Notes: generated by a model not told the origin, from the letters alone. DNA of 64,000 nucleotides from an uncultured Candidatus Peribacteria bacterium (GCA_964506185.1 CAZDKL010000004.1:179-64178); one strand, 5' to 3'. Positions 23,420 to 39,698 are shown, counted from the first letter of the stretch. Numbers and translations are program-made.

Positions 23420-25165
23420 TCATGTTTTATGCCGCTTTTTCCTTACATTTAGACCCAAAATTGCCAAAGCACAAATCAAAGAAATCAGGCTGATCCAGTT
23501 ACCTGCCCTCTGCCACATTGGAATCTTCCACATCGTTTTTTGGCCGCCGAGGAATTGCCTGGCATTCTCACCATCTTCAGCAAGTATGCGATCCCCCGGC
23601 TGACAATTATTAGCCTGAGGATATTGAAGGCATGCAGGATTGTAGATGTTGAACTTACCATCAGCCTGAACTGCAGGTGCGCCTCCTGTTATCGGATTGT
23701 TTTTGAAAATATCCGTTTGCCAGAAAAGTGACTCGTAACAATGTATGTGATTGCTTCCGGAAAAGATCGGAATCAGTTCTTCCAGTCCGCCTTTAAGCAT
23801 AAGCATTTGCGCAACGTCTTTATCTTTAAAGTCTTGGTACTGAGCCGCAAGTTCGCGATGAGTTGCAACCGGCATCACGCGTGGAAGTTCATTTGTCTTC
23901 ATTAACGGATAGTAAGCGATCGCAAATGCAATAATTGTAATTACACCGGCGCTTATTGAAATTAATAGCTCATTTTTTCTGACACTCGCCCATTGCATTA
24001 ACGCATAAACTCCAACTGCAGTCAGCGCAAACGAAAATGGATAAAGGAATCTCGTATTTATGTGAAGCGACTCAAATATTGGCAAGTTTTCAAGCGGAGT
24101 TACCAGTATTCCATATCCGCGTGCAAGTTGCGCGAAGAATATAACGATTAACAATGTGATAACTGCAATCAGAACTGACTTTGCAACCCGAGATTTGAAC
24201 TTATTCTTATTTTTCCAAAGCAAACTGAGCCCAACTACAACTCCAACCAAGACAATTGGAGAAAGATAAAGGCTGTATTCATGCGTTGCCCTGCCCGGCA
24301 TTCCAATGAAGCTAAAGAGCTCAGGCACCTGAGGAATCGCCCAGAATGCCTTAGCCATATACTCGAAAGGACAGCCGTCTGCAAACCTCTCAAACGGCTT
24401 CGCGCGTGGTATAAACCTCATGAAGCTCCATACGGCTGTTAGTTTGCTTAAGTTGATGAGGAGCGCCCCCAGTCCGCATGTTGCTGACCTTGCAATGAGT
24501 ATCTTTAATCGACTCTTTGATGAATTAAGTGTCAATTCAAACGGCAAGAAGATTACAAATGCCGCAATCGCCATCAACGCGACTACGTACCCACCGCTGT
24601 ACATAATGAATGCGGAGACTAATGCGAAGATTGAAGCCTTGGTAACCAAAGACCTGACTGAGCATTTTCTGCGGTCAAACAAAAGCCAAAGCAGAAGCCC
24701 GATCAAAGGCATTCCAAAAAATACTAAGTGCCCCGCTACCATGTGCATCAAATAAAATCCTTGTGCGAGAATTATCAATGCAAAAACATGCGACCATTGC
24801 TTGTTTAGTCTAACGATATCGCGTCCAAACAAGTACCATCCGAAATATCCGACTGACATTGCGATAATCATGCTAAGTTGCGATGCTCTCCAAAGATCCA
24901 TGCCAGCAATCGTAAGGAACTGAGGTAATGAGTAGAACATGTCTTGTGGATTTCCAAACTGCGGAACTCCTCCGCAAAAGTGCGGAGTGAAGTAGAAGAT
25001 GCCAAGCCCCTGACGGGCAAAGTGCCACTGTCCGGCATGAAGACGTGCGAAGAAATACACAAGGTCATGGCCCAAAATTCCGTTGAAGTTGAGGAACCAG
25101 AAGAAAACGCCAAGAAATAGGGCGAATATTGCAAGAAAGCTTAAATGGAGCTTTCGGGTGGTCAT
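23420..25165 (-). CDS. Polytopic integral membrane protein (possible GT-C-like glycosyltransferase)
   Basis: More than 10 predicted hydrophobic helices and a soluble C-terminal part. The functional label is based only on architecture. Confidence 0.6.
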   Translation of the reverse strand: MTTRKLHLSFLAIFALFLGVFFWFLNFNGILGHDLVYFFARLHAGQWHFARQGLGIFYFTPHFCGGVPQFGNPQDMFYSLPQFLTIAGMDLWRASQLSMIIAMSVGYFGWYLFGRDIVRLNKQWSHVFALIILAQGFYLMHMVAGHLVFFGMPLIGLLLWLLFDRRKCSVRSLVTKASIFALVSAFIMYSGGYVVALMAIAAFVIFLPFELTLNSSKSRLKILIARSATCGLGALLINLSKLTAVWSFMRFIPRAKPFERFADGCPFEYMAKAFWAIPQVPELFSFIGMPGRATHEYSLYLSPIVLVGVVVGLSLLWKNKNKFKSRVAKSVLIAVITLLIVIFFAQLARGYGILVTPLENLPIFESLHINTRFLYPFSFALTAVGVYALMQWASVRKNELLISISAGVITIIAFAIAYYPLMKTNELPRVMPVATHRELAAQYQDFKDKDVAQMLMLKGGLEELIPIFSGSNHIHCYESLFWQTDIFKNNPITGGAPAVQADGKFNIYNPACLQYPQANNCQPGDRILAEDGENARQFLGGQKTMWKIPMWQRAGNWISLISLICALAILGLNVRKKRHKT

Positions 25166-25192
25166 TGAGGATAGGATAGCAGGTTTTAATAA

Positions 25193-26296
25193 TTGACACT
25201 CTTGGTTATTCCAGTAAAGATGGTTGCCATTTTTATGAATTGCCAGGAATCAGATTCGGCCAGCCCGATTCGTAACAGAGCATATTTGGAGTTCTCAGGA
25301 GAGGTTGAAATTCTTACAGATAATAAGATACTTTTTCAAACTCCAAATAGTGGAAATAATCTCCAGGAATTGACCTCATTTGGAAATAGTGAATTTGAAT
25401 TCTTGAAACCACACATTCGTAGGGAAGATAGCGAAAAAGCTTCGAGATTATTTCAAATAGCCCAAGAACAAAGAACGGAATTGAATGCCTTACTGACAGA
25501 AACAGATGAAATGTGGATATTTTTAAACTCAAATGGTGGCGAACTTCTTGCCGAATCAAACACTGCTCCGATTGCAGTAAAAATGCAGATGGAAGAAAAA
25601 CCTTTGCACATCTGCACAAATTTTGCAGGCAGCACAGCCGCAGAAGTTATTCTAAGAAACAGAAGAGCTTTGTTGCATTGTCTGCCAGAATCAATTCTGA
25701 TATGGCATTGCGGCTCTGTAATAACAGAGCGTTGTGATCCAGAAGAATTAGAGAAAGTTTTAAATATGCAAAGCCTTAATAATTTGATGAGCTTTCTTTT
25801 TGCTCGCTTAAAACGTAATGAGGATATTACCAGTTTAGCACAGGCAATCATCGATCTTGGGCTCCTAGTAGGAGTATCCACCATGGAAGATTTTAAAATG
25901 TTTTTAAAAGAATATGCATCTATTAACTTTGATGCAGTAGACTCAATACTGGCATGCAATATCGATTTAAATGTAGATGATGACTATAGAATTAGAGGAA
26001 GTACGTTGCATGAAATCCACAACCTAACTGAGATGTATGACTCTACAGAATCTATGGCGCAAATGTTTGAGGGATACACAGGCAATAAAGTTACCATCGG
26101 TGATATGAGTACTCCTTGGAGCAGATTTTTCTCATTTATGAGAGCAACTGAATTAGCCAGAGAAAGAGGAGTATCTGATGTTTTATTTGTTGAAGCAGAA
26201 GAGGGAGAGATTCGTTGTGGTACACAAGAAGGATTGAGTGATGATGAAGCTAAAATATGCAAAGCCATAAAACATGAAGTATTTTTAGTTTCATAA
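25193..26296 (+). CDS. Hypothetical protein
   Basis: 367-aa ORF. No motif was recognised. Confidence 0.55.
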   Translation: MTLLVIPVKMVAIFMNCQESDSASPIRNRAYLEFSGEVEILTDNKILFQTPNSGNNLQELTSFGNSEFEFLKPHIRREDSEKASRLFQIAQEQRTELNALLTETDEMWIFLNSNGGELLAESNTAPIAVKMQMEEKPLHICTNFAGSTAAEVILRNRRALLHCLPESILIWHCGSVITERCDPEELEKVLNMQSLNNLMSFLFARLKRNEDITSLAQAIIDLGLLVGVSTMEDFKMFLKEYASINFDAVDSILACNIDLNVDDDYRIRGSTLHEIHNLTEMYDSTESMAQMFEGYTGNKVTIGDMSTPWSRFFSFMRATELARERGVSDVLFVEAEEGEIRCGTQEGLSDDEAKICKAIKHEVFLVS

Positions 26297-26492
26297 CGAA
26301 TTAATCCCACGACTAACACGAATAAGACAATCCGCGAAGCGGAAACTTGTTTTCGCTGGAGCGGCTCTTTTGAGGGAGGGGGTACTGGGGGAACCGTAGG
26401 TTCCCTCAGAATTCTGGCGGTGTTGAGGAGACAATCTTAGAACTTTTAAATGTAAATGTATTATCTGGTAGCCTATTTACTATATGAGGTTA

Positions 26493-26516
26493 TTGATCAA
26501 TAAACTGATGTATAAT
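26493..26516 (+). promoter_or_regulatory. Candidate sigma70-type promoter for the GHKL/STAS operon
   Basis: A perfect TATAAT (26511-26516) lies ~17-23 nt upstream of the TTG/ATG starts. The -35 candidates (TTGATC 26493, TTATTG 26490) have non-optimal 12/15-nt spacers. Confidence 0.3.
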
Positions 26517-26532
26517 CATTACATTATTCCTG

Positions 26533-27420
26533 TTGCTCATGACAATTGCGACTCAGATTGTTGTTAAATCAAGTTATAGCACCCTATCCCGATTTAAAGA
26601 ATTAGTAAGAAACATTTCATTTTTAGAATCTCTTGAGGATGGGGCAGAATTTGGAGTTAATGTTGAATATGCGACTCCATTACCTTTGTTGCCACTAGTA
26701 CCAATAATTAATAGAAAAAAATTAAAATGCACTGATGGCTTAAGTTCATATCTTAAAACTATTAGTTTTCCCGAAGGGAAAGAAGGGATAGAAAATATAT
26801 GTAAGGGGACATATATACCTGTATACCATTTATCTCTGGAGAATCTGTGTACGCCCGATGAACAAAGCAAAAAATTAGATTTGCTACATGAAGGTTACTT
26901 AACACTACTTCGCAACAACATTATTGAAGATGATAAATTTGCAAAATTTGTGACCAAGAGTAGCTTTGGAGTGCTACTGGGAGAACTAATTGCAAACATC
27001 GATGAGCATTCTTTGTCTAACAATGTATATATCTATTCTCAATACTGGAAGCAGAATGATACTTGCGAGATATGTCTTATGGACGATGGTCAAGGATTGC
27101 TTGGTTCATTGCAAGCTGCAGGTAGAGATGTAGTTAACTCTGAAGATGCAATTCAAAAAATAATTGAACAAGGGTTATCTGCGAAAGACGAATTTGGGGA
27201 TTCAAAAAGAGGGACAGGACTGAGAATGACCAGAACTGCTATTACAAGCAAGGTAGTCAAGGGAGAGTTTTTAATAGCATCTGGCAATGCAGCCTATCTT
27301 GAAACTCAAACTAGCTCAGGAATACCAATAGATTTGTCAATGGCATCAATACATGGCACAGTAATTATGTTAAAGTTTCAGAGACCACGTGCTACAATTA
27401 ATATCTATGACTATGTATAG
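26533..27420 (+). CDS. GHKL-superfamily (histidine-kinase-like) ATPase, SpoIIAB-like
   Basis: N-box LLGELIANIDEHS, G1 box CLMDDGQGL and G2 box KRGTGLRMT. The N-terminal ~140 aa are unassigned. Confidence 0.7.
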   Translation: MLMTIATQIVVKSSYSTLSRFKELVRNISFLESLEDGAEFGVNVEYATPLPLLPLVPIINRKKLKCTDGLSSYLKTISFPEGKEGIENICKGTYIPVYHLSLENLCTPDEQSKKLDLLHEGYLTLLRNNIIEDDKFAKFVTKSSFGVLLGELIANIDEHSLSNNVYIYSQYWKQNDTCEICLMDDGQGLLGSLQAAGRDVVNSEDAIQKIIEQGLSAKDEFGDSKRGTGLRMTRTAITSKVVKGEFLIASGNAAYLETQTSSGIPIDLSMASIHGTVIMLKFQRPRATINIYDYV

Positions 27421-27730
27421 AATCACACTGCCACTATCGGATGTATTTGATTCTTCAAGTCTTGTTACTAGAAGTGCTGCGAGCATCTTGATCAAAAAAA
27501 TAGAAGAGTTAAATGTTAAAGAAGTAACTTTGGATTTTAGTGAAATTAATCATACATCTAGATCATTTTTTGATGAGCTTGTTAGTAAAACTAAATGTCT
27601 GAAGAATCAGAAAATATTGTTTAAGAATCTCAGTCGTGATTTAGAGAGCTTGTATCATTTTGTAGACAATTATCAGTGCAATTCATCTAGGTTTAAAAAG
27701 ATAGATAAATCAAAAAAAGTAGTTATTTAA
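27407..27730 (+). CDS. STAS-like small protein (resembles DUF4325)
   Basis: ITLPLSDVFDSSSLVTRSAASILIKKIEELNVKEVTLDFSEINHTSRSFFDELV follows the STAS-like DUF4325 pattern (recalled from memory). Its start overlaps the stop codon of the ATPase gene. Confidence 0.6.
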   Translation: MTMYRITLPLSDVFDSSSLVTRSAASILIKKIEELNVKEVTLDFSEINHTSRSFFDELVSKTKCLKNQKILFKNLSRDLESLYHFVDNYQCNSSRFKKIDKSKKVVI

Positions 27731-27740
27731 TTTCTTAATC

Positions 27741-27932
27741 ATGGGTTGGCTGTTTACAGTATTGGGATATATAGCTCTTGGAGCGTTTATTGATATGTTT
27801 ATAACCAGTGATACTTACACGAAAGGGACAGGTGAAGTTCATTTTTTGAAAAAAGATGAGAGAAAGAATGTACGAATGTGGTTTTGGATAATATGGATAG
27901 GTTTTCCTATTGGGTTTGCACTACTGGTGTGA
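27741..27932 (+). CDS. Small two-helix membrane protein
   Basis: Two hydrophobic helices (WLFTVLGYIALGAFIDMFI; MWFWIIWIGFPIGFALLV). Confidence 0.45.
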   Translation: MGWLFTVLGYIALGAFIDMFITSDTYTKGTGEVHFLKKDERKNVRMWFWIIWIGFPIGFALLV

Positions 27933-28109
27933 ATGTTCCTCAGCTTTTGATTTAGCCACAATGGCAAATAGTGTAAGCATGGTCTCCCCATACTCCCTGG
28001 CCATCTCTGGAGTTAATTCCTCGCCCATTTCCTGTTTCCACAGTCCTTGGAATGCCTTGATGTCATCGTCAGTTAAAGTCATAAATGCATTGAGAAGAAG
28101 ACTATACAT
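27921..28109 (-). CDS. Small hypothetical helical protein
   Basis: 62-aa ORF with protein-like composition (TDDDIKAFQGLWKQEMGEELTPEMAREYGE). Confidence 0.4.
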   Translation of the reverse strand: MYSLLLNAFMTLTDDDIKAFQGLWKQEMGEELTPEMAREYGETMLTLFAIVAKSKAEEHSHQ

Positions 28110-28126
28110 TAATACAATATCTCCCT

Positions 28127-29014
28127 ATGAAAAAAGCAATTACAGCCTTTTTATCTTTATTAGTACTTACTGCCTGTACAGCCACAGAAGCCGATCTACA
28201 GGGCTTAAAAGAGCGAATTGAGGCTCTTGAGAAGGAGAATACAGAGCTTAAGCAAACGGAAACTGGTTCTGTTGAGGAGGAAGATAAAGAGCCTGAGCCA
28301 AAGGCTGAAGACAAGAAAGTCGAGGTAAGACAACCTGAGCCAGAGCCTGCACCTGCGCCACAACCAAAACCTAAACCAGTTCCAAAGCCTGAACCCCAAC
28401 CAGCAGTTAAGAAGTGTGAGGAATCAGATTGGGATTGCACGATATGGACTCCGTGTACAAATGGAAAGGAAATTAGAGTATGCAAATTAATTGGTAGTTG
28501 CACTGAAGGATTTCAACCCGAAGTTATAGAAAAAACTTGTGAAGATGGAACAACTAAAAAAACAGGTGAATTAAAAGCGCCTCCATGCACAACAGAAGAT
28601 TGGAGGTGTACTGAATATTCATCTTGTTACAATGGGAAGCAAACTAGAACTTGTGATTTGATTTCTCAGTGTGTTGGTGGCGCAAATGTGAAGCCAAATA
28701 CTATTAGTCTATGTAAAGCACCACCATCTCCAAAGCCTGTTTATAGAAGTCCAAGACAACAAATGAGTGATAATATAGAAAAGTGGAAAACGTTCCGTGC
28801 AGATATGATGAAACAAGTAGAGTTTTACCTGAAGCAAGATGAGCCTGCGTATGGTTTGCGACAAATAGATAAGATCGACGTCGAGTTTGTTGCTTACTTC
28901 AATGAATACATAAAGATTTATAATGGAGATAAGGAAGGCGATCCAGAAAGGCTGGAAAAATCCATTAATAATCTAATTAAAGAGTTTAATGCTTTGCCAA
29001 AGTTTTATTATTAA
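28127..29014 (+). CDS. Lipoprotein with a coiled-coil leader, a Pro/Glu/Lys linker and two Cys-rich repeats
   Basis: Lipobox LLVLTAC, then LQGLKERIEALEKENTELK. Repeats DWDCTIWTPCTNGKEIRVCKLIGSC and DWRCTEYSSCYNGKQTRTCDLISQC. Confidence 0.8.
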   Translation: MKKAITAFLSLLVLTACTATEADLQGLKERIEALEKENTELKQTETGSVEEEDKEPEPKAEDKKVEVRQPEPEPAPAPQPKPKPVPKPEPQPAVKKCEESDWDCTIWTPCTNGKEIRVCKLIGSCTEGFQPEVIEKTCEDGTTKKTGELKAPPCTTEDWRCTEYSSCYNGKQTRTCDLISQCVGGANVKPNTISLCKAPPSPKPVYRSPRQQMSDNIEKWKTFRADMMKQVEFYLKQDEPAYGLRQIDKIDVEFVAYFNEYIKIYNGDKEGDPERLEKSINNLIKEFNALPKFYY

Positions 29015-29023
29015 GAAGGGTAC

Positions 29024-29191
29024 CTATTTTTTCCCCCAAATTGAAAATCCTAACATGCCAGTAGCTACAAAAAGAGGAATTATTATTATCGCATCTTCCA
29101 TCAATGCTTCAGATGGATGTGTTAGATTTAAATCATGAAGCAAGGCAAGTATTAATAATCCCAAAGACAGAAAGAAGAAAAATATCCGCAT
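29024..29191 (-). CDS. Possible 55-aa membrane peptide (below the ORF-track cutoff)
   Basis: My own translation: MRIFFFFLSLGLLILALLHDLNLTHPSEALMEDAIIIIPLFVATGMLGFSIWGKK. Confidence 0.3.
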   Translation of the reverse strand: MRIFFFFLSLGLLILALLHDLNLTHPSEALMEDAIIIIPLFVATGMLGFSIWGKK

Positions 29192-29237
29192 ACAAGATAA
29201 TGCTACATATGCTCTAAACCTTAATCAATCTGACTTA

Positions 29238-29570
29238 TTAAATCGTAGATCCAATTTTTAATATATCCCAGGTATTTCCTTTAGTATCTACCCCCTGACA
29301 GATTGGCTCATCAAAAATTGTATCTGTGCAATACATATCATCTAACCTGACTGGACTGCCATTTGTTAAAAATACTGTCATGCTCATCCCGTTATTGTTC
29401 CTAACATATAGACTTTGACAATCGCTACTTTCAGAATATGGCCTCTTGCATACCATAAGGTACTCTTTGCCTGTAAAAAATGGATCTTTTTGATAAGTAT
29501 TTCCTCCACAGCTGAATAATAGTAATAATGACAAACCCAATAATGATTTTTTATTACTCATAAACTCCAT
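29238..29570 (-). CDS. Small lipoprotein
   Basis: Signal peptide and lipobox: MSNKKSLLGLSLLLLFSCGG. Confidence 0.6.
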   Translation of the reverse strand: MEFMSNKKSLLGLSLLLLFSCGGNTYQKDPFFTGKEYLMVCKRPYSESSDCQSLYVRNNNGMSMTVFLTNGSPVRLDDMYCTDTIFDEPICQGVDTKGNTWDILKIGSTI

Positions 29571-29597
29571 TATAGGATAGTACGCTATACTTACTAT

Positions 29598-30002
29598 ATG
29601 CAAATAACCAAGAAGAAGTTTATAGCCATATTACCTATTGCACTGCTCGTAACAGCATGCATTCCAACTATTCAAGATACACAGGAAAAATCACAACTCG
29701 ATAACAAGATTAAATGTCATGAATTTGGAATGAAGAATTATTTCGAAGAAGAAAGCAAATACAAGTGGTATCCCGAGCAAGTATTTGCTTACAGTCCAGA
29801 TCTAGATTCATGTTTGTATTACTATCGATTTTTCACAGAAAATAATTCAGGCAGAGGGATAGTGGATATGTTTTCGGATAAATCACTATCTATTTATATG
29901 CCAATTTGTAACAAGAGAAATAAATGTTCTGATACTCTAAAAGCTGAAGATGCAAAGAGCTTTGATGATTTTATGGCTGTGTATAATAAGTATTTTGAAT
30001 AG
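29598..30002 (+). CDS. Small lipoprotein
   Basis: Signal peptide and lipobox: KKKFIAILPIALLVTAC. Confidence 0.6.
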   Translation: MQITKKKFIAILPIALLVTACIPTIQDTQEKSQLDNKIKCHEFGMKNYFEEESKYKWYPEQVFAYSPDLDSCLYYYRFFTENNSGRGIVDMFSDKSLSIYMPICNKRNKCSDTLKAEDAKSFDDFMAVYNKYFE

Positions 30003-30006
30003 GGCG

Positions 30007-30048
30007 CCCATCAAAAGCACCCCCTAGGGTTGTTTATTGGTACCATGA
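30007..30048 (+). repeat. 42-bp direct repeat, copy A
   Basis: cccatcaaaagcaccccctagggttgtttattggtaccatga matches 40 of 42 positions of 32230-32271. Confidence 0.9.
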
Positions 30049-30063
30049 TGGACACATTGGTTT

Positions 30064-31062
30064 TTAGTTGTTTTTAAACAATGACCACAGCCAGCGCCAA
30101 AATCCGCCCTTTGATGAATCAGTATCATTATTAATCTGCGGCTTATCTTCAATACTTTCTACAGGCACCGATTCAATTTTCTCTAGCTCTGCACTACTAC
30201 TTACAATTGGCTGTGCACCAACCATAGGTGCTTCTTCTTGTGGATTGCATACATCGCCCCATAAGCCAGTTCTTTTCTCACGAGCTTCTTTCTCATCACT
30301 ATTGTAATCATCTAGTCTGGGATGTGGATATTTTTTGTAACTGTGTGCATATCCTTCTTTTATCATCTGTTTTCCAATATCTCTACCTAAATAATGAACG
30401 TAACGCAATAGGCGACCATATACATCGCGATTCTCTGCTGGATTTTTCACCAGCGTTACATACTTATCACCAATAAGTTGTTTAAGCTTTGCGCCAGCTT
30501 CTTTACCAAAGCATTCAACTGGCTTGCTAGGATGCACGGTCTCAGGTGAATCGATACCTATGATTCTCACTTTCTCTCTTTTATTATCACAAAAAAATGC
30601 AAAAGTATCTCCATCAATCACCTCGGATACTTGGGTCATGAAGCTGTTCACTTCGCAATCCAAGAGGCAATTATTTCCAATTTCCTTGTAACCATCGTTG
30701 CATAGCCAAACGTCAGTACCGTTGTTAGCTTTATGAGAATTGTCTGGCACTTTTGCACAGGACTGGCCATTCAATGATGGCAAATATCCTACATTACATT
30801 CACACAAACTGGCTGATTTATTATATTTTGCATTTGCGGGGCATCTCGGAGTTGTAGGAACATACTTAGGAGTAGGTGCATACGTAGGCGTTGGGGAACG
30901 ATACCCTCCATGACAATGCCTAGCATTCCATGTCTCACCCCAATAATCACATCTTGTTCTACAGTAATGACATCCATCTGAAGCAGTTCTACCAGGGTGT
31001 GCTTCTACTACGATTGGTAGAATTAATATTGCCAATGCAAGAATTAGTCTATTTATTGTCAT
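30064..31062 (-). CDS. Secreted thermonuclease (SNase-like) with a His/Cys-rich leader and EGF-like Cys modules
   Basis: Signal peptide. SNase core: VIDGDTFAFFCDNKREKVRIIGIDSPET...ECFGKEAGAKLKQLIGDKYVTL...DVYGRLLRYVHYLGRDIGKQMIKEGYAHSY...EAREKRTGLWG. Confidence 0.88.
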   Translation of the reverse strand: MTINRLILALAILILPIVVEAHPGRTASDGCHYCRTRCDYWGETWNARHCHGGYRSPTPTYAPTPKYVPTTPRCPANAKYNKSASLCECNVGYLPSLNGQSCAKVPDNSHKANNGTDVWLCNDGYKEIGNNCLLDCEVNSFMTQVSEVIDGDTFAFFCDNKREKVRIIGIDSPETVHPSKPVECFGKEAGAKLKQLIGDKYVTLVKNPAENRDVYGRLLRYVHYLGRDIGKQMIKEGYAHSYKKYPHPRLDDYNSDEKEAREKRTGLWGDVCNPQEEAPMVGAQPIVSSSAELEKIESVPVESIEDKPQINNDTDSSKGGFWRWLWSLFKNN

Positions 31063-32174
31063 AATTTAGAATAATCTTCTGTGAACTTATCTACCTTTTC
31101 CTGTAATGCAGGATCTCTCTCAGCTTTTGATAAAGCATCCATCTTCCAGGATACTTTACCTTGCTTCCTCAGATCTTCCATCATTTTAGTGGCACTATTT
31201 TGTGCTTCGGCAATCTGTGATCTACTCATTTTGCTTCGAGCTTCATCCATTTTTTCCTTTGCATCAGGTACCCCTTGAGATCTAGCAATACTCAACCAAA
31301 CATATGCAAGCACTTGATTCTTTGGCACACCAATTCCAAGTGCATACATATCACCAAGATGATATTGAGCAAGAGGATCACCCTGTTGTGCTGATTTACT
31401 TAACCATTTCGCTGATTCATTCCAATCTTCTGTGACACCAATTCCATTAAAATAATCCATTCCTACAGAGAATTGCGCATCCGAATTTCCATTTTCAGCC
31501 GCTTCCAGATACATCTCAAAAGCCTTAACATGATCTTGGGGCACTCCATAACCAAGGCTGTGCATTACTGCTAACTGATACAAAGCCTCAACATAACCCA
31601 ACTCAGTTGCTCTTTCGTATAATTGATTTGCTTTCGTGTAATCTTTTTTGACCCCCAAGCCACTCGTATATAGCTTACCTAATAAATATTGAGCAGATGG
31701 AAAATCTTGATCTGCAGATTTTTTGTACCAATAAGCTGCCTTTTTGTAATTCTGCGTTACTCCATTCCCACCCTGATGCATATAACCAAGCAAATACTGC
31801 CCAAATGGGCATTTATCTTTAGCTGATTTACGAGCCAATTTGATCGCTTTTTTATAATCTACATCAACACTTTGGCCTAAATAGTACATTGACGAAAGCA
31901 TTGATGTTGCAGCAGGGTCACCCAAATCATGAGCTTTCTTAAACCACTCAAGTGACTTGTCGAAGTTTTGTTCAATTCCCTTTCCTTCATAATATCGTCT
32001 GCCAATTTCAGCTACCACAGTCAAATCGCCTTCTTTTTCCTTATTAAATAATTCCTCCATCGTAAATGCATGCATCTCTTGATAATTTATATTATCAAAC
32101 ACACTACTATCACTATTAATAGTACAACTTGCACATAAGATTGTTATCAAGGCAATGACGGCGAGTCTTTGCAT
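31059..32174 (-). CDS. Sel1-repeat (SLR/TPR-like) lipoprotein
   Basis: Lipobox ITILCASC, then seven or more Sel1 repeats (e.g. AQYLLGKLYTSGLGVKKDYTKANQLYERATELGYVEA). It overlaps the nuclease gene by 4 nt. Confidence 0.88.
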   Translation of the reverse strand: MQRLAVIALITILCASCTINSDSSVFDNINYQEMHAFTMEELFNKEKEGDLTVVAEIGRRYYEGKGIEQNFDKSLEWFKKAHDLGDPAATSMLSSMYYLGQSVDVDYKKAIKLARKSAKDKCPFGQYLLGYMHQGGNGVTQNYKKAAYWYKKSADQDFPSAQYLLGKLYTSGLGVKKDYTKANQLYERATELGYVEALYQLAVMHSLGYGVPQDHVKAFEMYLEAAENGNSDAQFSVGMDYFNGIGVTEDWNESAKWLSKSAQQGDPLAQYHLGDMYALGIGVPKNQVLAYVWLSIARSQGVPDAKEKMDEARSKMSRSQIAEAQNSATKMMEDLRKQGKVSWKMDALSKAERDPALQEKVDKFTEDYSKL

Positions 32175-32229
32175 GTGACAAAGGTAGTACTATTTGAACT
32201 AGGCCACAAGCTTATAGCTAATGGGGGTA

Positions 32230-32271
32230 CCCATCAAAAGCACCCCCTAGGGTTCTATATTGGTACCATGA
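32230..32271 (+). repeat. 42-bp direct repeat, copy B
   Basis: cccatcaaaagcaccccctagggttctatattggtaccatga. Confidence 0.9.
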
Positions 32272-32313
32272 CGAACAAATCCTAAATACCATTTTATGTT
32301 ATAATATGCATAT

Positions 32314-32667
32314 ATGAGTGATAAGAAGAAGATAGGTAGGCCAACCAAATACAACGATGAAATTCTGAATAAAGCAAAATCATATGTTTCACACTGCCAA
32401 GATAAAGAAAAAATTCCCTATATCGAAGAATTAGCCCTTATTTTAGACATAAACGACGATACAATCGTTGAATGGACAAAGAAGCACAAAGAGTTTTCCG
32501 CCACTATAGATCAACTCAAAACGCTTCAGAAGCTACGAATTAAGGATGGTGCTTTAACCAAGCAATTACATCCTTCTACTTCGATGTTTCTACTTAGAGC
32601 CAATCATGGAGTTAGTGATAGACGTTATGATAAGCCTGAGAATGTAGAGTTTGTAATTACACTGTAG
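32314..32667 (+). CDS. Terminase-small-subunit-like HTH protein
   Basis: GRPTKYNDEILNKAKSYV...IPYIEELALILDINDDTIVEWTKKHKEFSATI...STSMFLLRANHG follows the phage TerS / gp3-like pattern. Confidence 0.6.
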   Translation: MSDKKKIGRPTKYNDEILNKAKSYVSHCQDKEKIPYIEELALILDINDDTIVEWTKKHKEFSATIDQLKTLQKLRIKDGALTKQLHPSTSMFLLRANHGVSDRRYDKPENVEFVITL

Positions 32668-32673
32668 TAGCAT

Positions 32674-32970
32674 ATGTATGTGTTCAGGAACTGTGTTTTT
32701 ATTGGCTCTCTGTTGCTGATTGGATGTACTTCAACTTCTTACGATATTGATTTAAAATGCAAAAATGGTCGTACAGATGCTGGAAACCCATATTTCCGAG
32801 TTGATGCTTTTTCAAGAGATAGAAAAACTGAGACGTTGACTTGTTACTGGGGAGAATATTTCAAAGTAAAATGCGCAAGTAATACATCAAGAAGAATTGA
32901 CGATGAATACTTCTGCACAACACACGATGGCAAGAGCGTGCGGGTACAACTAGAGAAAGAAGACACCTGA
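32674..32970 (+). CDS. Small lipoprotein
   Basis: Lipobox: IGSLLLIGCTS. Confidence 0.5.
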   Translation: MYVFRNCVFIGSLLLIGCTSTSYDIDLKCKNGRTDAGNPYFRVDAFSRDRKTETLTCYWGEYFKVKCASNTSRRIDDEYFCTTHDGKSVRVQLEKEDT

Positions 32971-32984
32971 TAAAATAGGTAACT

Positions 32985-33773
32985 CTAAGTATTCTCTAAG
33001 TTTTTCGGTGCGTTATAGTTTTCCATCTGCTTCAGTTGCTCGCGTTTCTGAATCTCCTGAGCCTTCTTAAACCAATTGCCAAGCCCCTTGGTAGTTAGAG
33101 AATCGATTTTCCTCTCTAATAGCCACGATGCATGATGCTGAAGCTCGACCTTCATTTTTATTTTGCCTAGATATCGCTCAACAATGGGATCAAGGCTTTC
33201 AACTGTTACCACATTGGTAATTCCATGCCTATTACACATCTCTTCTATCGAATCAAATAATGCTTTTGTTTCAAATCGCACGTTCGTATTCTTGTAATTC
33301 TTTTCATTATTCTCATTATTTTCATTCTTGTTAATGGATGGACGTTGTTGGTTCTCTTTTAGTCTATCTTTGGAATCTTCATTGGTATGTTCCTTGGTTC
33401 GTTCGTAGTTAGTTAGATTCTGATATTTATCGTAGTTAATAACAGTAATTAATATTCCTCTTGGTTTTTTCGCAGTGGTTATTCGATTGGTATCTCGTAA
33501 GTATTTCAGTACACGTTTCGCTGTGCTGTCGCTCGCATTCTTTCTGCAACAGCCAATGTAGTAACGTAACTGATCAAGCAATTCTCCACTATGACAAAAA
33601 TATTGCCCACGTTCTACCGTGAAACCACGGTAACGTTTTCTTTCATGGTTAGCCTTGCCGATAATATATATAAAAATTTTTAAGTAAGTTGGAGGCATCT
33701 CCCATATATCGCTTGTAAATAAGCTACGTGAGAGTTGGAAAGCGCCTTGGCTGTGATTATCAGTCAGTGGCAT
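32985..33773 (-). CDS. Replication/DnaD-like winged-helix protein of a mobile element
   Basis: FQLSRSLFTSDIWEMPPTYLKIFIYIIGKANHERKRYRGFTVERGQYFCHSGELLDQL...RVLKYLRDTNRITTAKKPRGILITVINYDKYQ is a pattern common in phage/plasmid replication-organiser proteins (family not verified). Confidence 0.5.
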   Translation of the reverse strand: MPLTDNHSQGAFQLSRSLFTSDIWEMPPTYLKIFIYIIGKANHERKRYRGFTVERGQYFCHSGELLDQLRYYIGCCRKNASDSTAKRVLKYLRDTNRITTAKKPRGILITVINYDKYQNLTNYERTKEHTNEDSKDRLKENQQRPSINKNENNENNEKNYKNTNVRFETKALFDSIEEMCNRHGITNVVTVESLDPIVERYLGKIKMKVELQHHASWLLERKIDSLTTKGLGNWFKKAQEIQKREQLKQMENYNAPKNLENT

Positions 33774-33865
33774 CGCTTTGCGTGTTAATTGTCTCCTCTA
33801 TACCTTCAGTGCGATCTCTTATCCCTTTCAGGATCAGAAAGTATTCGGCGTAGACCATTGCTCGC

Positions 33866-34075
33866 TCATCTAGTGTTAACACTTTCATTATCGTATAGAT
33901 CGTCCATAGGGATATGTAAAAGATGCCCTGCGTGGAATAAAATTGATTTCGGTGGTTTTACTTCGCCATTCTCGTAGCGCCATAAAGTTGATCTACTAAT
34001 GCCCAATTCATTGGCAAGCCATGTAAGTGTTACACCATTCTTGCGTCGGTAATGTCGTATAGCTGTCATATGCAC
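33866..34075 (-). CDS. XRE-family HTH regulator
   Basis: RRKNGVTLTWLANELGISRSTLWRYENGEVKPP. Confidence 0.8.
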   Translation of the reverse strand: MHMTAIRHYRRKNGVTLTWLANELGISRSTLWRYENGEVKPPKSILFHAGHLLHIPMDDLYDNESVNTR

Positions 34076-34167
34076 TGTGGTAAATATCTGTTGCCAGAAT
34101 ATCCGAAATAGGTTGGGGGTGCCATGTAAACGTTGCGCACTGCCATATAGAGTGCTACAGTGCCGAT

Positions 34168-35022
34168 ATGCTCAGTAAAAGTGTGTTTCAGATCATTGCA
34201 GAGAAGCGTAAAGAACGGCATATTTCACTCAGCTTACTTGAAGAGAAAACAGGTAAAGATCGGGCTTCGATAATGAGATGGCAAAGGGGTGAATGCATGG
34301 TGCCAAAAAAAATGGATAGCATATTGGCAGAACTTTTTTATGATAATGTTCAGGATAGGAAAAAATTTATAGAGCATTGTAAATACTCTAGAGACAAAGG
34401 AAGAAAAGAAATGAACAGAAGGCGTAACAGACGCAAAAAGATGACAGAAGCAAGCAAATTATTTAAGGCTGATTTAAATTTGGGTTGGACATCATCAAGT
34501 GATGATAATGAATACAAATATTCTTATGCATCAGTAGTTGTTAGAAATAAAAAAACGGGGCAATTTATTTTGAATGTGTGTCACAGAACATTTCGCTTTT
34601 ACGAAGATGGATATTCAGAAGATGGAAAATTACCAAAACCTTTGTACCACAAGAGTGCCCTAGAACCATATATGAGATACTGTTCAAAAAATAAAATTGG
34701 TAAATTTGCTTTGTTTGATCTTGCAAAACGAGAGGTTGAAAAATCTGATATGTTTAAAGTTTCTAGTCCAGACTGGTTCCCTATTCCAGGAGGCAAGCCT
34801 ATCATTGTTGACTCATTAGAAATCGAGAAAATACAAAAGTTTTTGGAACGAGCGCATGATTATACTAGCGTTAAAAAGTTAAAATCGGATGCAAAAGACC
34901 TTAATACAAGATTAGATCACATAAGGTCTAGAGCGAGTGAGATGCCGAAGTGTAAAGATAAACTTTTAAAAAGTATTGATAATGCATGTATCTTAATTCA
35001 AGAAAAACTATCTGATGCCTAA
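34168..35022 (+). CDS. HTH-domain protein, divergent from the XRE gene (possible switch partner)
   Basis: N-terminus IIAEKRKERHISLSLLEEKTGKDRASIMRWQRGE. The C-terminal 200 aa are unassigned. Confidence 0.6.
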   Translation: MLSKSVFQIIAEKRKERHISLSLLEEKTGKDRASIMRWQRGECMVPKKMDSILAELFYDNVQDRKKFIEHCKYSRDKGRKEMNRRRNRRKKMTEASKLFKADLNLGWTSSSDDNEYKYSYASVVVRNKKTGQFILNVCHRTFRFYEDGYSEDGKLPKPLYHKSALEPYMRYCSKNKIGKFALFDLAKREVEKSDMFKVSSPDWFPIPGGKPIIVDSLEIEKIQKFLERAHDYTSVKKLKSDAKDLNTRLDHIRSRASEMPKCKDKLLKSIDNACILIQEKLSDA

Positions 35023-36511
35023 ATACGTTGCTTACCTCAGGCGTTCAACTAAAGATGAAAAGCATCAACAGTACTCCATAAGTGCTCAAGATAAGCTATG
35101 TAAAAAATATGCTAAGCAACACTCACTTACTATTGGGAAAATAGTTACAGAAGAACACAGTGCAAGAATGGCTGGTAAACGACCTAAATTTTTGGCAATG
35201 CTTGAGGATCTAGAACAAGGCAAATATGAAGGTGTTATTGTGCACAATGTTGATCGCTTACTTCGCTCCATTGGAGATTACGCTCTTATAGATACTCTAA
35301 GAACAAGTGGTACTGAGTTTCATTTTGTTGATGGTTCTTATCCTAATACTCCAGAAGGCAACATGATGCTTGGGATTAATGTTGTCTTTGCCAAATGGTA
35401 TGTAGAAAAGCTTGGCAAGGAAGTTAAGAAAGGATTCAAGGAATCGCTTGAGCAGGGTAGATACCCAGGTGAAGCACCAGTTGGTTATCTCGACAAAGGC
35501 AAGGGTATCAAAACTCCTGATCCTGTTTACGCACCTCTTGTACGCCAAGCATTTGAGCTATACGCCACAGGAGACTATTCATTGGATTCTCTTACAGCAG
35601 AAATGAGAAAGCGTGGATTGCGTACTAAGCGAGGTCAGAAGTATGGCAAACAACTTGTAAAGGGCTCATTGCACAGAATCCTCTCGAACCCTTTCTATTG
35701 CGGAAAAGTGTTAATGAAAGGGGAAGAATACGAAGGCGGACATGAACCAATCATTTCAAAAGACCTTTTTTATCGTGTAGAAAAACTCCTTCACTCAAAG
35801 AATACTTCATTCGTTTCGCGCAAACCATTTGCATACAGAGGCTTACTTCGGTGCTCATGTGGACAGATGCTTTCGCCTTATGAAAAGAAAGGACGTATTT
35901 ACTATGGATGCCATCAAAAGGGGTGTACCCAATCAACAACTAGGGAAGGGGTGATAGACGAAGCAATCAATAATATTTTGGATAAGTTGATGTTTACAGA
36001 TAAGGAACTTGAAGCAACTCGCAAGTCTATGAAGAAACTGGAGGCATTTGTAACCGAAGAGAGAGATACAAACTTGAAATCAATAATAGCCAGAAAAGAG
36101 AAGGTCAATGATCGCCTTGGTAAAGTAAGACAGCTTGTTATTGAAGGCACCTTTGGCAAAGATGAATATGAGGAAGAGAAAGACAAGATCGAAAAAGAGC
36201 TTTCAGATATTGCAGAGGAAGAGGAGCGTATTCAAAAAATTGAAGTAAAACGATTGGATGAAGTTTATGAGTTCTTAGAACTAACCAAAAAGGCATCTTC
36301 GTACTTCAAAAAGGGAAACCTTGAAGAGAAGAGACGTATCGCACAAATGGTATTCTTAGACGTGCAGATAACAGACAAGGAAGTGACTTCTTTTAGCCTG
36401 AATGAAGCTTTTGAGACTTTGAACAGGCGTCATGATCGATGTATCGGTGCGTATGGCGGGGCTGACGAGACTCGAACTCGCGACCTTCCGCGTGACAGGC
36501 GGACGTTCTAA
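35015..36511 (+). CDS. Large serine recombinase (integrase)
   Basis: Resolvase catalytic N-terminus (VAYLRRSTKDEKHQQYSISAQ...GVIVHNVDRLLRS), recombinase domain (GEAPVGY), Cys-rich zinc-ribbon region (LRCSCGQ...YYGCHQKGC) and a coiled-coil tail. The last 58 nt are antisense to tRNA-Asp. Confidence 0.9.
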   Translation: MPKYVAYLRRSTKDEKHQQYSISAQDKLCKKYAKQHSLTIGKIVTEEHSARMAGKRPKFLAMLEDLEQGKYEGVIVHNVDRLLRSIGDYALIDTLRTSGTEFHFVDGSYPNTPEGNMMLGINVVFAKWYVEKLGKEVKKGFKESLEQGRYPGEAPVGYLDKGKGIKTPDPVYAPLVRQAFELYATGDYSLDSLTAEMRKRGLRTKRGQKYGKQLVKGSLHRILSNPFYCGKVLMKGEEYEGGHEPIISKDLFYRVEKLLHSKNTSFVSRKPFAYRGLLRCSCGQMLSPYEKKGRIYYGCHQKGCTQSTTREGVIDEAINNILDKLMFTDKELEATRKSMKKLEAFVTEERDTNLKSIIARKEKVNDRLGKVRQLVIEGTFGKDEYEEEKDKIEKELSDIAEEEERIQKIEVKRLDEVYEFLELTKKASSYFKKGNLEEKRRIAQMVFLDVQITDKEVTSFSLNEAFETLNRRHDRCIGAYGGADETRTRDLPRDRRTF

Positions 36512-36530
36512 CCAACTGAACTACAGCCCC
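36454..36530 (-). tRNA. tRNA-Asp (GTC), CCA encoded
   Basis: The minus strand reads GGGGCTGTAGTTCAGTTGGTTAGAACGTCCGCCTGTCACGCGGAAGGTCGCGAGTTCGAGTCTCGTCAGCCCCGCCA. It folds as a cloverleaf with anticodon loop CTGTCAC. Confidence 0.93.
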
Positions 36531-36580
36531 ATTAGAACAGGAGAAATTTACTTAAAAATTGGCTTATTGGCAACAAATTG

Positions 36581-37660
36581 TTACTGAATATATAGAAGCG
36601 GATTTTTCTTGATACCCCGTAATCTGACCTCAAAGTGAAGGTGAATCCCCGTTGCGCCATAAACGAGTCCTGTGCGCCCCATCCATGCAATCATTTGTCC
36701 ACGCTTAACAATGTCCCCTTTCTTTACATAAAGCTCCTTGTTGTGCGCATAGAGAGTGATCAGATCATTACCATGATCGACCTCAATCACATTTCCAAAT
36801 CCTCCATTCCATCCATAGCCGGCTCTGATTACCGTACCTGCTTCAGCCGCATAGATGGGGCCTGCTCCTTTCTCCTGCATATCAAGAGCATAGTGTCCTG
36901 CACGATAGTATTGAGTAATGAAACATACATCTGAACACGGTTTTTGCAAAACTCCTGACGTTGGAGTTGGAGTATATTTTTTTGGAGCCTCGTCACGCGT
37001 TGGTTTTGAAGGTTTGATTGGAAGTTTTTCCGGAGGCTGATCTGAAGGTGTGGGTGCAGGAGTGGGCACGGGTGCGGGCTCATCCGGAACAGGCGGTGGA
37101 TCTGCTGTGGCAACTAGCACAGGCTTGCCAACAATTGGAGTTGCACCGGGAATTATCAGTTCCTGACCCGCAAGAATAAATCCTCCTTTGATTTTATTTT
37201 GTGCAACGATCTCTGCTTGCTCAATCCCATAAAGCTCAGAAATTCCTATAAGAGTTTGTCCTCTGCTGACTGTGTGAAGCACGCCATCAACCGGAAGTAT
37301 GAGAAGTTCATCTCCGGGTTGCATCACGCCCGAACCCTCCAAATCATTTGCCCAACGAACTGTGTTGGCCGCTATTCCATAACGATCTGCTAATTTCTCT
37401 ACGCTATCTCCTTCTTTAACCGTATGAAAGATTCCCTCTGCGTATGCGCGTCTGGAACCTTGCTGAGAAATCGATCCTGACTTCATTAGAAATCCTTCTT
37501 CAACCAAAAGAAATTGCGACGTTGCAATCGAAACCTCCTGTGGAGCAAGGGCGGCCTTTGGTACGTATGGAGGAAGAAGTGAACCCAACGCAAAAACAAG
37601 AACGCAAATCAATCGTACACGAACAGAAAGCCAGCGGGCAGTAGGTGAGTAAGAAATCAT
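36581..37660 (-). CDS. LysM-domain M23 family metallopeptidase
   Basis: Two LysM modules (HTVKEGDSVEKLADRYGIAANTVRWAN; HTVSRGQTLIGISELYGIEQAEIVAQN), a Pro-rich linker and the M23 motifs HYALDM...HGNDLITLYAHN...TGIHLHFEV. Confidence 0.9.
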   Translation of the reverse strand: MISYSPTARWLSVRVRLICVLVFALGSLLPPYVPKAALAPQEVSIATSQFLLVEEGFLMKSGSISQQGSRRAYAEGIFHTVKEGDSVEKLADRYGIAANTVRWANDLEGSGVMQPGDELLILPVDGVLHTVSRGQTLIGISELYGIEQAEIVAQNKIKGGFILAGQELIIPGATPIVGKPVLVATADPPPVPDEPAPVPTPAPTPSDQPPEKLPIKPSKPTRDEAPKKYTPTPTSGVLQKPCSDVCFITQYYRAGHYALDMQEKGAGPIYAAEAGTVIRAGYGWNGGFGNVIEVDHGNDLITLYAHNKELYVKKGDIVKRGQMIAWMGRTGLVYGATGIHLHFEVRLRGIKKNPLLYIQ

Positions 37661-37662
37661 AT

Positions 37663-38607
37663 TTATGATACATCAGATTCAAAGTTTGAATCCTTTGTTT
37701 TGTACTTTAATTCAATAATATCCATTATCTTTCGCATATCTATATATCTCTGCGAAGAATACATAAGAACCACAAGAAATGATCTGTCGTTATGTTCAAC
37801 CAAAGACATAAGACACTCTTTCGCAGCATCCGTGGTTCCGGTTTTGCCCGCCGCTATCCTAGCATCATCTTTGGAGAGATCCCCATTTGAAGAACTCGCA
37901 TGCATGAGTGCATGTGTGTGGACAAGATCAATGTAAGTGCCTTGGACGCTTTTTATCCGCGTACCCCGCTTGGACAACCTCGAAATCAATTCCTCATAAC
38001 TCATTGCAAAGGCAGAAAGCCAAGCCATGTCTTGAGGAGTTGTCCATTGCTCGAAACTATCCAGTCCGATTGAGTTTTTGAATCTCGTGTCTTTTAGTCC
38101 CAAAGCCTGCGCACGCGCATTCATTTCCTGAGCGAATTCCTCCACGGTTCCGCTATGAAAAACCGCCAACGTATATGCTGCATCATTTGCAGAATGAATT
38201 AACACTGCAGACAACATATCCTTCACCGTAAAATCTTCTCCGACTGGAAGATACGCGCTGTTACCTTCTATTCGAGCAGCTTTGTAAGGAATGGTTACAA
38301 GTTCATCCAGTTCGTGATTTTCCAAAATTATAATTGCTGTCATTAGTTTTGTTAGACTTGCCATGGGTCGACGCACATCAATTTGTTTTCCATATAACTT
38401 CTGCCCGCTCTTTGCATCCAATATCAAAACGCCTGAAGCAGAAAGTTTGCTATCAATTTCCAAAGGACTAGACGGAGGCGAGATAGCTAAGCTATCTATC
38501 GCAGGAGTCACCTCATCCATAGGCGGCAAAGAAACCGGAACAAGCCCAAACAAAAGCGCTGCGATAATTGAGCGATACATCCGCCATAGGATAGGAGGTG
38601 TGGGCAA
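37663..38607 (-). CDS. D-alanyl-D-alanine carboxypeptidase (PBP5-type serine peptidase S11)
   Basis: SxxK motif MASLTKLMTA, SxN motif HSAND and KTG motif GKTGTT. Confidence 0.88.
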   Translation of the reverse strand: MPTPPILWRMYRSIIAALLFGLVPVSLPPMDEVTPAIDSLAISPPSSPLEIDSKLSASGVLILDAKSGQKLYGKQIDVRRPMASLTKLMTAIIILENHELDELVTIPYKAARIEGNSAYLPVGEDFTVKDMLSAVLIHSANDAAYTLAVFHSGTVEEFAQEMNARAQALGLKDTRFKNSIGLDSFEQWTTPQDMAWLSAFAMSYEELISRLSKRGTRIKSVQGTYIDLVHTHALMHASSSNGDLSKDDARIAAGKTGTTDAAKECLMSLVEHNDRSFLVVLMYSSQRYIDMRKIMDIIELKYKTKDSNFESDVS

Positions 38608-38680
38608 GTTGTTGAAGTGATTATTATGAGTTTTAGTGCAACTAATAACACACTAGTCAAGAATTTAATTTACAAAGGTA

Positions 38681-38749
38681 AAGAATCAGAGGAATCAGAA
38701 GAGTGTAAACAGGTGGCATCCTCTGATTCTTCTGCTTCTTCTGATTCTT
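38681..38749. repeat. Simple-repeat hairpin between the carboxypeptidase and ftsQ-like genes
   Basis: aagaatcagaggaatcagaagag ... cctctgattcttctgcttcttctgattctt. Confidence 0.8.
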
Positions 38750-38758
38750 CTGCCTCCT

Positions 38759-39673: not shown

Positions 39674-39698
39674 GCAGCTATCATAGCCAATCTGCCTG

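Follow-up and report, generated by a model that had tools for sequence, protein, structure and literature searches.

The stretch of DNA studied here, referred to below as the window, comprises 64,000 nucleotides from an uncultured Candidatus Peribacteria bacterium (GCA_964506185.1 CAZDKL010000004.1:179-64178), and its positions 26,533 to 27,730 carry two overlapping genes, here designated K and S, whose products are a two-domain protein with a predicted GHKL kinase/ATPase domain and a small STAS-like protein. As judged from sequence profiles, this pair is a distant relative of VapK and VapS, the kinase and its substrate in a recently described toxin-releasing switch. The features of the locus, with coordinates counted from the first letter of the window, are the following.

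26539..27420, plus strand: gene K, encoding a VapK-like GHKL protein of 293 amino acids with two domains
Layout of the K protein: a VapK-like N-terminal alpha/beta domain (residues 1-104), a helical linker, and a GHKL kinase/ATPase domain (residues ~140-285)
27407..27730, plus strand: gene S, encoding a STAS-like DUF4325 protein of 107 amino acids and overlapping K by 14 nt
26481..26516, plus strand: AT-rich leader and candidate promoter/operator, with an imperfect 16+16-nt palindrome (26481-26512) and a TATAAT box (26511-26516)
27741..27932, plus strand: orphan open reading frame (ORF) of 63 amino acids with two hydrophobic, putatively transmembrane segments (2-TM), beginning 10 nt after S
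25188..36450, no strand: low-GC segment of 11.3 kb that is absent from same-genus genomes, holds K and S, and ends at a serine integrase gene and tRNA-Asp
26415..26432, no strand: 18-nt copy of the tRNA-Asp 3' end, matching 36454-36471 at 15 of 18 positions, ~105 bp upstream of K

The initial annotation of this locus had described a pair of overlapping reading frames, and these exist as described: the stop codon of K (TAG, 27418-27420) lies inside the start region of S, and is overlapped by S from any of its three possible start codons, which are GTG 27389 (113 amino acids), ATG 27407 (107 amino acids) and ATG 27413 (105 amino acids). The protein lengths given at that time need some adjustment. 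A K frame of 295 amino acids can indeed be read from TTG 26533, but the N-termini of homologous proteins favour ATG 26539 and hence a protein of 293 amino acids; for S, ATG 27407 agrees with the homologue N-termini and yields the same 14-nt overlap that is found in the close relative L011.

The K protein itself has no direct match in Pfam (E ≤ 1), NCBIfam, PADLOC or the sequences of the PDB, and a profile built from 8 K sequences retrieved only noise from the PDB (e.g., CdiA and lysozyme). The assignment to the GHKL proteins, which had been proposed from three sequence motifs, therefore required indirect proof, and this proof succeeded. The motifs ELIANIDEHS, DDGQGL and GTGLRMT are all present in K and fall on residues that are invariant across its relatives; in an alignment of 86 family members, these are E149, N153, H157, D182, G184, G225 and G227. 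The N-box (ExxxN) is represented by E149 and N153 within the segment GELIANIDEHS, while the G1 box (D182-D-G184-Q-G186) and the G2 box (R224-G225-T-G227) are invariant or nearly so in the same 86 relatives. Forty-seven of these relatives are matched by the Pfam model HATPase_c and 18 by HATPase_c_2, a link to the window K that is transitive only; of the two hidden Markov model (HMM) searches suggested along with the initial annotation, the one for DUF4325 was directly positive for S, whereas the one for HATPase_c missed the window K and found its relatives. An AlphaFold2 model of K (predicted local distance difference test score, pLDDT, 84.7; predicted template modelling score, pTM, 0.86) has a low-confidence loop (residues 218-224) at the position expected for the ATP lid, and its Foldseek matches in the PDB (E 5e-4 to 0.1) are almost all GHKL proteins, including the Hsp90 N-domain, GyrB/ParE, DesK, and the anti-sigma F chains of 8JZT and 8IH8. 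Matches of the model in BFVD also include HATPase proteins, and K matches phrog_3364 with an E-value of 3e-23 (positions 42-292 of 304). The combined evidence from conserved residues and structural modelling makes the assignment of K as an intact GHKL (Bergerat-fold) protein secure at the level of the fold; by analogy, K is predicted to be a kinase and S its substrate. A search of 5.8 billion proteins recovered seven close homologues of K with 38-58% identity, and a profile built on this set finds 2,218 representatives of clusters formed at 50% identity (threshold E ≤ 1e-3), the majority being full-length, with 270-300 amino acids.

The assignment of S to the STAS-like DUF4325 family (PF14213) was borne out directly, with a score of 27.2 bits against a gathering cut-off of 23 (E 3e-6), and a genome-wide scan for DUF4325 returned this same single copy. 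S carries the motif LDF..I..SRSFFDEL, of which at least 90% of 40 relatives keep S51 and F54, and a short basic C-terminal tail. When a profile of the S family was compared with the PDB, the best match was 9Z7O_A, 'Escherichia VapS' (E 2.2e-9), with TM1442 and RsbS, both STAS proteins, coming next. These profile matches show S to be a STAS protein of the DUF4325 family and a homologue of VapS.

The VapKSC system of Escherichia sp. E4736 protected against phage Bas42 by ~2 logs (Chambers et al., EMBO J 2026, PMC13373217); VapK (STAS-GHKL) phosphorylates VapS (STAS plus a short tail), and this leads to the release of the PIN toxin VapC (PMC13373217). In the related CapK/CapS pair, CapK (HTH-STAS-GHKL, HTH denoting a helix-turn-helix domain) is switched on by single-stranded DNA (ssDNA) and phosphorylates CapS (STAS followed by a winged helix-turn-helix domain, wHTH) on a conserved serine (PMC13373217); phosphorylation of CapS de-represses adjacent immune operons, and the pair responds to DNA damage (PMC13373217). 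The earlier statement that pairings of this type have no experimentally defined function is thus superseded at the level of the superfamily by the characterization of CapK/CapS and VapK/VapS/VapC in 2026 (PMC13373217); the K family itself has no described function in the literature searched.

With the VapK sequence taken from Appendix Table S2 and the model file of that study (PMC13373217), the K profile aligns to VapK with 34.4 bits, and profile positions 19-271 cover VapK residues 24-282 and thus both domains. In this alignment, VapK residues F54 and P57 correspond to Y44 and P47 of K, the N-box residues E156/N160/H164 to E149/N153/H157, D190xGxG to D182xGxG, and R236-G-x-G to R224-G-x-G. 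Y44 lies inside a conserved [F/Y]-x-T-P motif, and phenylalanine occupies this position in the 7 closest homologues. The N-terminal domain of K, which had been called unassigned, aligns with the N-terminal (STAS-type) domain of VapK.

The likeness of the window pair to VapKSC thus extends over the two-domain plan and size of K (293 amino acids versus 296 or 301 for VapK, depending on the start codon), the retention in K of the N-box, G1 and G2 residues and of an aromatic equivalent of VapK F54, the size of S and its plan, both as in VapS (a STAS domain with a short tail), and the order of the genes, K before S. The differences lie in the lack of a VapC/PIN gene next to the window pair, in the host, a bacterium of the candidate phyla radiation (CPR), and the carrier, a serine-integrase island, and in a sister clade that has a ClpP-like protease upstream of K, whereas VapKSC has a PIN toxin downstream of S. 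With CapK/CapS the pair shares a GHKL protein with an apparently STAS-type N-terminal domain, recognized here by profile alignment, and a STAS partner. It also shares the proximity to restriction-modification (R-M) systems: these adjoin CapK/CapS in 88/443 cases (PMC13373217), and type IIG R-M genes adjoin K and S at three homologous loci (L001, L025, L028). Unlike CapK, however, K lacks an N-terminal HTH, as the alignment to VapK starts at its first beta strand, and S lacks the C-terminal wHTH; a Pfam scan of both proteins found no HTH or wHTH match and DUF4325 only in S, which for this reason cannot be a CapS-type repressor, and no immune operon follows the window pair. To SpoIIAB-SpoIIAA and RsbW-RsbV the pair is related at the level of the fold, by the combination of a Bergerat-fold serine kinase with a STAS substrate or antagonist, but K has an extra N-terminal domain and the module is mobile and patchy in its distribution. 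Pfam DUF4325, which holds S, and phrog_3364, which matches K, are both uncharacterised bins and not functional systems.

The association of K with S is not a peculiarity of the window. S is present in 20 of 20 sequence-distinct loci that were found with the close-family profile A1 and have complete downstream DNA, as well as in two phage loci; the S genes at K loci encode ~100-120 amino acids and typically overlap K by 4-17 nt. An independent sample of 401 Bacteroidia genomes contained 25 carriers with 28 K loci, and a DUF4325 gene lies directly downstream of K or is fused to it in 24 of them, while a 25th locus has an S-like ORF on the opposite strand. The two proteins also occur in Bacteroidia as single polypeptides of the Rosetta-stone type, with HATPase_c and DUF4325 in one chain (L062:1420-2712, 430 amino acids; L075:1276-2625, 449 amino acids). 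The pairing is near-obligate: K and S show translational coupling, are inherited together in almost all cases and in some are fused. Close homologues have a scattered distribution that takes in Peregrinibacteria, Saccharibacteria, Paceibacterota, Altimarinota, Bacteroidota, Balneolota and Ignavibacteriaceae, and the pair is also found in Bacteroides phage BF1-TP2 (gp43/gp42), in the inserted fragment IFa of Methanothermobacter virus psiM100 (ORFB/ORFC, L010:3541-6333), and in the Francisella prophage KIRK, where it lies beside a CI repressor and near an integrase (PMC7924643). The module thus moves horizontally among phyla, phages and islands. Searches of viral contigs with close-family patterns and of plasmids by tblastn gave no match.

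In psiM100, whose record annotates IFa as an inserted fragment, ORFC scores 29.4 bits against DUF4325. The next gene, ORFD, encodes 492 amino acids with a faint resolvase-like match, so that the cassette possibly reached this virus as a mobile unit. A separate observation concerns an uncultured Peribacteria metagenome-assembled genome (MAG), in which a 237-amino-acid ORF (L030:4522-5235) adjoining a pseudouridine synthase gene joins the C-terminal 113 residues of a K GHKL domain in frame to an S protein. Its K part is 53% identical to residues 146-258 of the window K, and the ORF looks like a deletion-decayed copy of the pair.

The window pair lies in DNA that differs from its surroundings. 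The GC content of the 11.3-kb segment is 33-41%, and 35-37% at the pair, compared with 43-45% in the flanks, in agreement with the earlier description of low-GC accessory DNA. The flanking regions (window positions 23490-25187 and 36450-39674) are conserved at ~80% identity by blastn at the syntenic loci of two same-genus genomes, G005 and G006, and the first of them encodes a 581-amino-acid membrane protein that in both genomes lies ~0.55-0.75 kb from tRNA-Asp. Because these flanks are conserved and blastn against the same syntenic loci found no counterpart of positions 25188-36450, the pair must lie inside an 11.3-kb insertion. The initial annotation was accordingly right to view the pair as cargo in accessory DNA, but it is not merely situated next to an element; it resides inside the segment that is missing from the sister genomes. 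Beside the serine integrase, this segment also encodes DnaD-like loader and small-terminase-like genes, and K and S sit at the end of the island far from the integrase. The 18-nt tRNA-Asp copy is possibly the distal attachment-site remnant, a tentative reading of a short and imperfect match. A related island without K and S was not found among 40 relatives searched via the DnaD-like protein. The host genome, that of a Peribacter-like CPR bacterium (1.36 Mb, 98% complete), contains a single K and a single S gene, and a single canonical ClpP that is encoded away from the pair (G000:C26:10698-11234); no full-length close K homologue was present in 60 relatives, including seven of the same genus, the best match among them reaching 83 bits over profile positions 43-274.

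Some further features of the island stand apart from the pair. A segment of ~128 bp carrying tRNA-Asp (window 36450-36577) is inverted relative to the conserved flanks in G005 and G006 (L050:5201-5328, L051:15723-15848), so that the tRNA-Asp 3' end faces the island in the window and points in the opposite direction in these relatives. Direct repeats of 56 nt with 88% identity (30002-30057 and 32225-32280) bracket SNase and Sel1 genes, an arrangement which suggests that the island contains a nested insertion. The stretch between the gene for an upstream 367-amino-acid protein and the tRNA-like 18-mer has two GC-rich hairpins, which together mark the junction just upstream of the K-S leader: the first (26331-26343, TCCGCGAAGCGGA) is a stem resembling a bidirectional terminator, and the second (26385-26409) has the arms CTGGGGGAACC/GGTTCCCTCAG.

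The TATAAT box reported ahead of the pair is in place, but a consensus promoter scan scored no complete sigma-70-type site at it. Downstream of S follow the 2-TM ORF, a convergent 62-amino-acid ORF and a lipoprotein gene. The 2-TM protein is as it had been described, with 63 amino acids and two hydrophobic segments that begin at residues 2 and 44. It was considered as a conserved third gene of the module and discarded in this role, as none of 20 other loci has a counterpart downstream of S; its service as an effector is possible but unsupported. Likewise, the 367-amino-acid protein encoded upstream (25193-26296), suspected by eye to be ClpP-like on account of the segments IFLNSNGGEL...AGSTAAEV, was rejected: BLAST showed no similarity between it and the ClpP partner in L001, and it has no Pfam or PHROG match and no match at maximum sensitivity to an HMM of nine K-linked ClpP proteins.

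At other loci, K and S are accompanied by further genes. In nine distinct loci (L001, L012, L017-L022, L024), the start of K is overlapped or directly adjoined by a gene for a ClpP-like protein of 187-212 amino acids. The Pfam model CLP_protease was run on seven of these ORFs; six scored 55-68 bits and that of L017 a sub-threshold 19.1 bits, while the call for L001 stems from a precomputed CLP_protease annotation and that for L022 from a custom HMM. The serine and histidine of the catalytic motifs are kept in these K-linked proteins, and one protein, P0014, is a ClpP-K fusion. Three-gene operons in which the genes for the ClpP-like protein, K and S overlap are found in Saccharibacteria, Peregrinibacteria and several Bacteroidota (for instance L001:9376-11183, L012:202-1986 and L018:9415-11195), and it is possible that they represent a protease-effector version of the VapKSC logic that is absent from the 2026 paper. 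The ClpP-linked K proteins fall together in a maximum-likelihood tree, which would fit a single gain. In the same tree, the window K forms a clade with those of L008 and L011 (support 100/99), and all members of this clade lack ClpP and keep both genes. Other arrangements include P0093, a metagenomic protein of 1266 amino acids in which a DEAD/ResIII helicase (residues 200-545) is fused to a complete K module (991-1265), apparently another swap of effector or partner, and a Bacteroidia locus (L076:41-1357) in which a 438-amino-acid Fic/DOC protein takes the usual position of S downstream of K. Taken together, the ClpP-like, helicase and Fic variants and the published PIN version argue that K and S form a portable sensor-switch coupled to interchangeable outputs.

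We consider it probable, at roughly 0.6, that the window pair is a kinase-substrate switch of the VapK/VapS type and the cargo of an integrated mobile island; the biological role of the pair is most likely the protection of the host or of the island against phage, or a stress response. By analogy with the characterized systems, K would be kept inactive until it meets a cue of stress or infection; this cue would probably be ssDNA, bound in the groove between the N-terminal and GHKL domains, where Y44 would replace F54 of VapK. Activated K, using ATP (N153, D182xGxG), might then transfer phosphate to a serine of S where helix 2 begins, S51 or S53, and the phosphorylated S would change its binding partner. 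Candidates for the target of S are the 2-TM protein, a protein encoded elsewhere, or K itself.

Several observations weigh against this reading. The identity between K and VapK is only ~15%, and the activating ligand could therefore differ. The N-terminal domain of K, modelled alone with AlphaFold2 (pLDDT 76), has a best PDB match of E 0.3, STAS proteins included; since the isolated domain has no significant fold match, its STAS nature is one indicated by profile alignment to VapK and VapS alone. The proven phospho-serine of VapS is S48 (PMC13373217), and in the HMM alignment it falls on R52 of S, flanked by S51 and S53, so that the phospho-acceptor of S is uncertain. Neither K nor S convincingly matches a PADLOC model, and the 2-TM protein has no homologue in the 5.8 billion proteins and no Pfam match. 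Neither a PIN toxin gene nor any identifiable effector is present in the window. In a survey of the homologues' neighbourhoods, covering 114 proteins from 18 homologous loci, genes related to genetic conflict, which speak for the reading, did appear (besides type IIG R-M, AbiEii (2), Fic (2), HEPN, and a PLD-SNF2 helicase), but many of the neighbours are housekeeping genes, and the signal of a defence island is consequently modest. PIN domains were found neither among the 25 most frequent Pfam families of these neighbours nor among the called genes of L001-L015.

Other explanations have to be set against the proposed VapK/VapS-type switch. The pair might be an addiction module of the toxin-antitoxin (TA) kind that stabilises the island, in which K, as a kinase or ATPase, would be toxic, S would neutralise it, and K would be set free once the island is lost. 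A compact cassette of two overlapping genes on mobile DNA with a patchy distribution would suit such a role, coupling of DUF4325 genes to PIN.4 VapC toxins is also on record (PMC5499597), VapS is a proven antitoxin (PMC13373217), and AbiEii, Fic and SocA TA genes occur near the homologues. The toxin of VapKSC is, however, VapC and not the kinase (PMC13373217), and the stable K-S fusions of L062 and L075 are poorly compatible with a mechanism that depends on differential stability, which leaves this explanation unlikely. About equally doubtful is a sensor that regulates the island itself, in which DNA damage or the replication of a helper phage would activate K, and phosphorylated S would trigger excision, replication or packaging. 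CapK/CapS do control adjacent operons transcriptionally upon DNA damage (PMC13373217), the island, at whose far end the pair sits, also has genes for a serine integrase, for a DnaD-like loader and for a small-terminase-like protein, and the imperfect palindrome overlaps the putative promoter; yet S (107 amino acids, DUF4325 only) has neither a wHTH nor another DNA-binding domain, K has no HTH, and the same K-S subfamily also occurs in loci without integrases or island genes.

That the pair is a non-functional relic, left to decay after a system of three genes (ClpP-like protease-K-S or K-S-toxin) lost its effector, is an improbable reading, although in a sister clade a ClpP-like protease gene is fused to K or overlaps it and another Peribacteria MAG holds the degraded copy L030 with its truncated K in frame with S. 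Both window ORFs are intact and keep all catalytic and family-invariant residues, the well-supported clade formed by K with L008 and L011 retains both genes throughout without ClpP, and ClpP maps on the tree as a single gain and not as repeated losses. An ordinary switch of the SpoIIAB/SpoIIAA or RsbW/RsbV type that controls a sigma factor is already largely refuted and is highly improbable. The similarity in fold is real (K to the anti-sigma F kinases of 8JZT and 8IH8, S to TM1442 and RsbS), but a sigma factor turned up neither among the scanned neighbours in the window nor among the called genes of L001-L015 or the 25 top neighbour families, and the homologues do not lie in sigma-factor operons; a SpoIIE-type PP2C phosphatase (PF07228) has no match in the 98%-complete host genome, and the pair, which is carried by phages and islands, is missing from the relatives that were searched. 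The structural reading of the initial annotation, a SpoIIAB-like GHKL protein with a STAS-like partner that is not wired to a sigma factor, and its remark that neither a sigma factor nor a PP2C phosphatase is nearby, have therefore stood. Of the two outcomes named there as refuting, a failure of the GHKL or STAS-like assignments and a consistent embedding of homologues in sigma-factor operons, neither occurred.

A more specific proposal, which we regard as a speculative and rather unlikely extension, holds that S is a phosphorylation-gated adaptor or inhibitor of ClpP-type proteases and that the ClpP-like protease is the effector of the sister clade. In the window, the hydrophobic and conserved C-terminal tail of S (...VVI, ...ITI) would then act on the single ClpP of the host or on the 2-TM protein. 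If true, this would be the first VapKSC-like switch with a protease output, and the window pair would represent a minimal, 1.2-kb, ssDNA-triggered abortive-infection device in an ultra-small CPR genome.

The window pair is an effector-less variant of the kind of kinase-STAS switch first described in 2026, and it extends the CapK/VapK switches to a large family of ~2,200 clusters at 50% identity that reaches into CPR bacteria, archaeal viruses and Bacteroides phages. Since K and S travel without the published PIN toxin, their output must be swappable or encoded in trans, and the ClpP-like protease variant of the sister clade points to a concrete new effector class. For the biology of the host, the pair is among the few candidate modules for sensing infection or stress that reside on a mobile island in a CPR genome of this small size.

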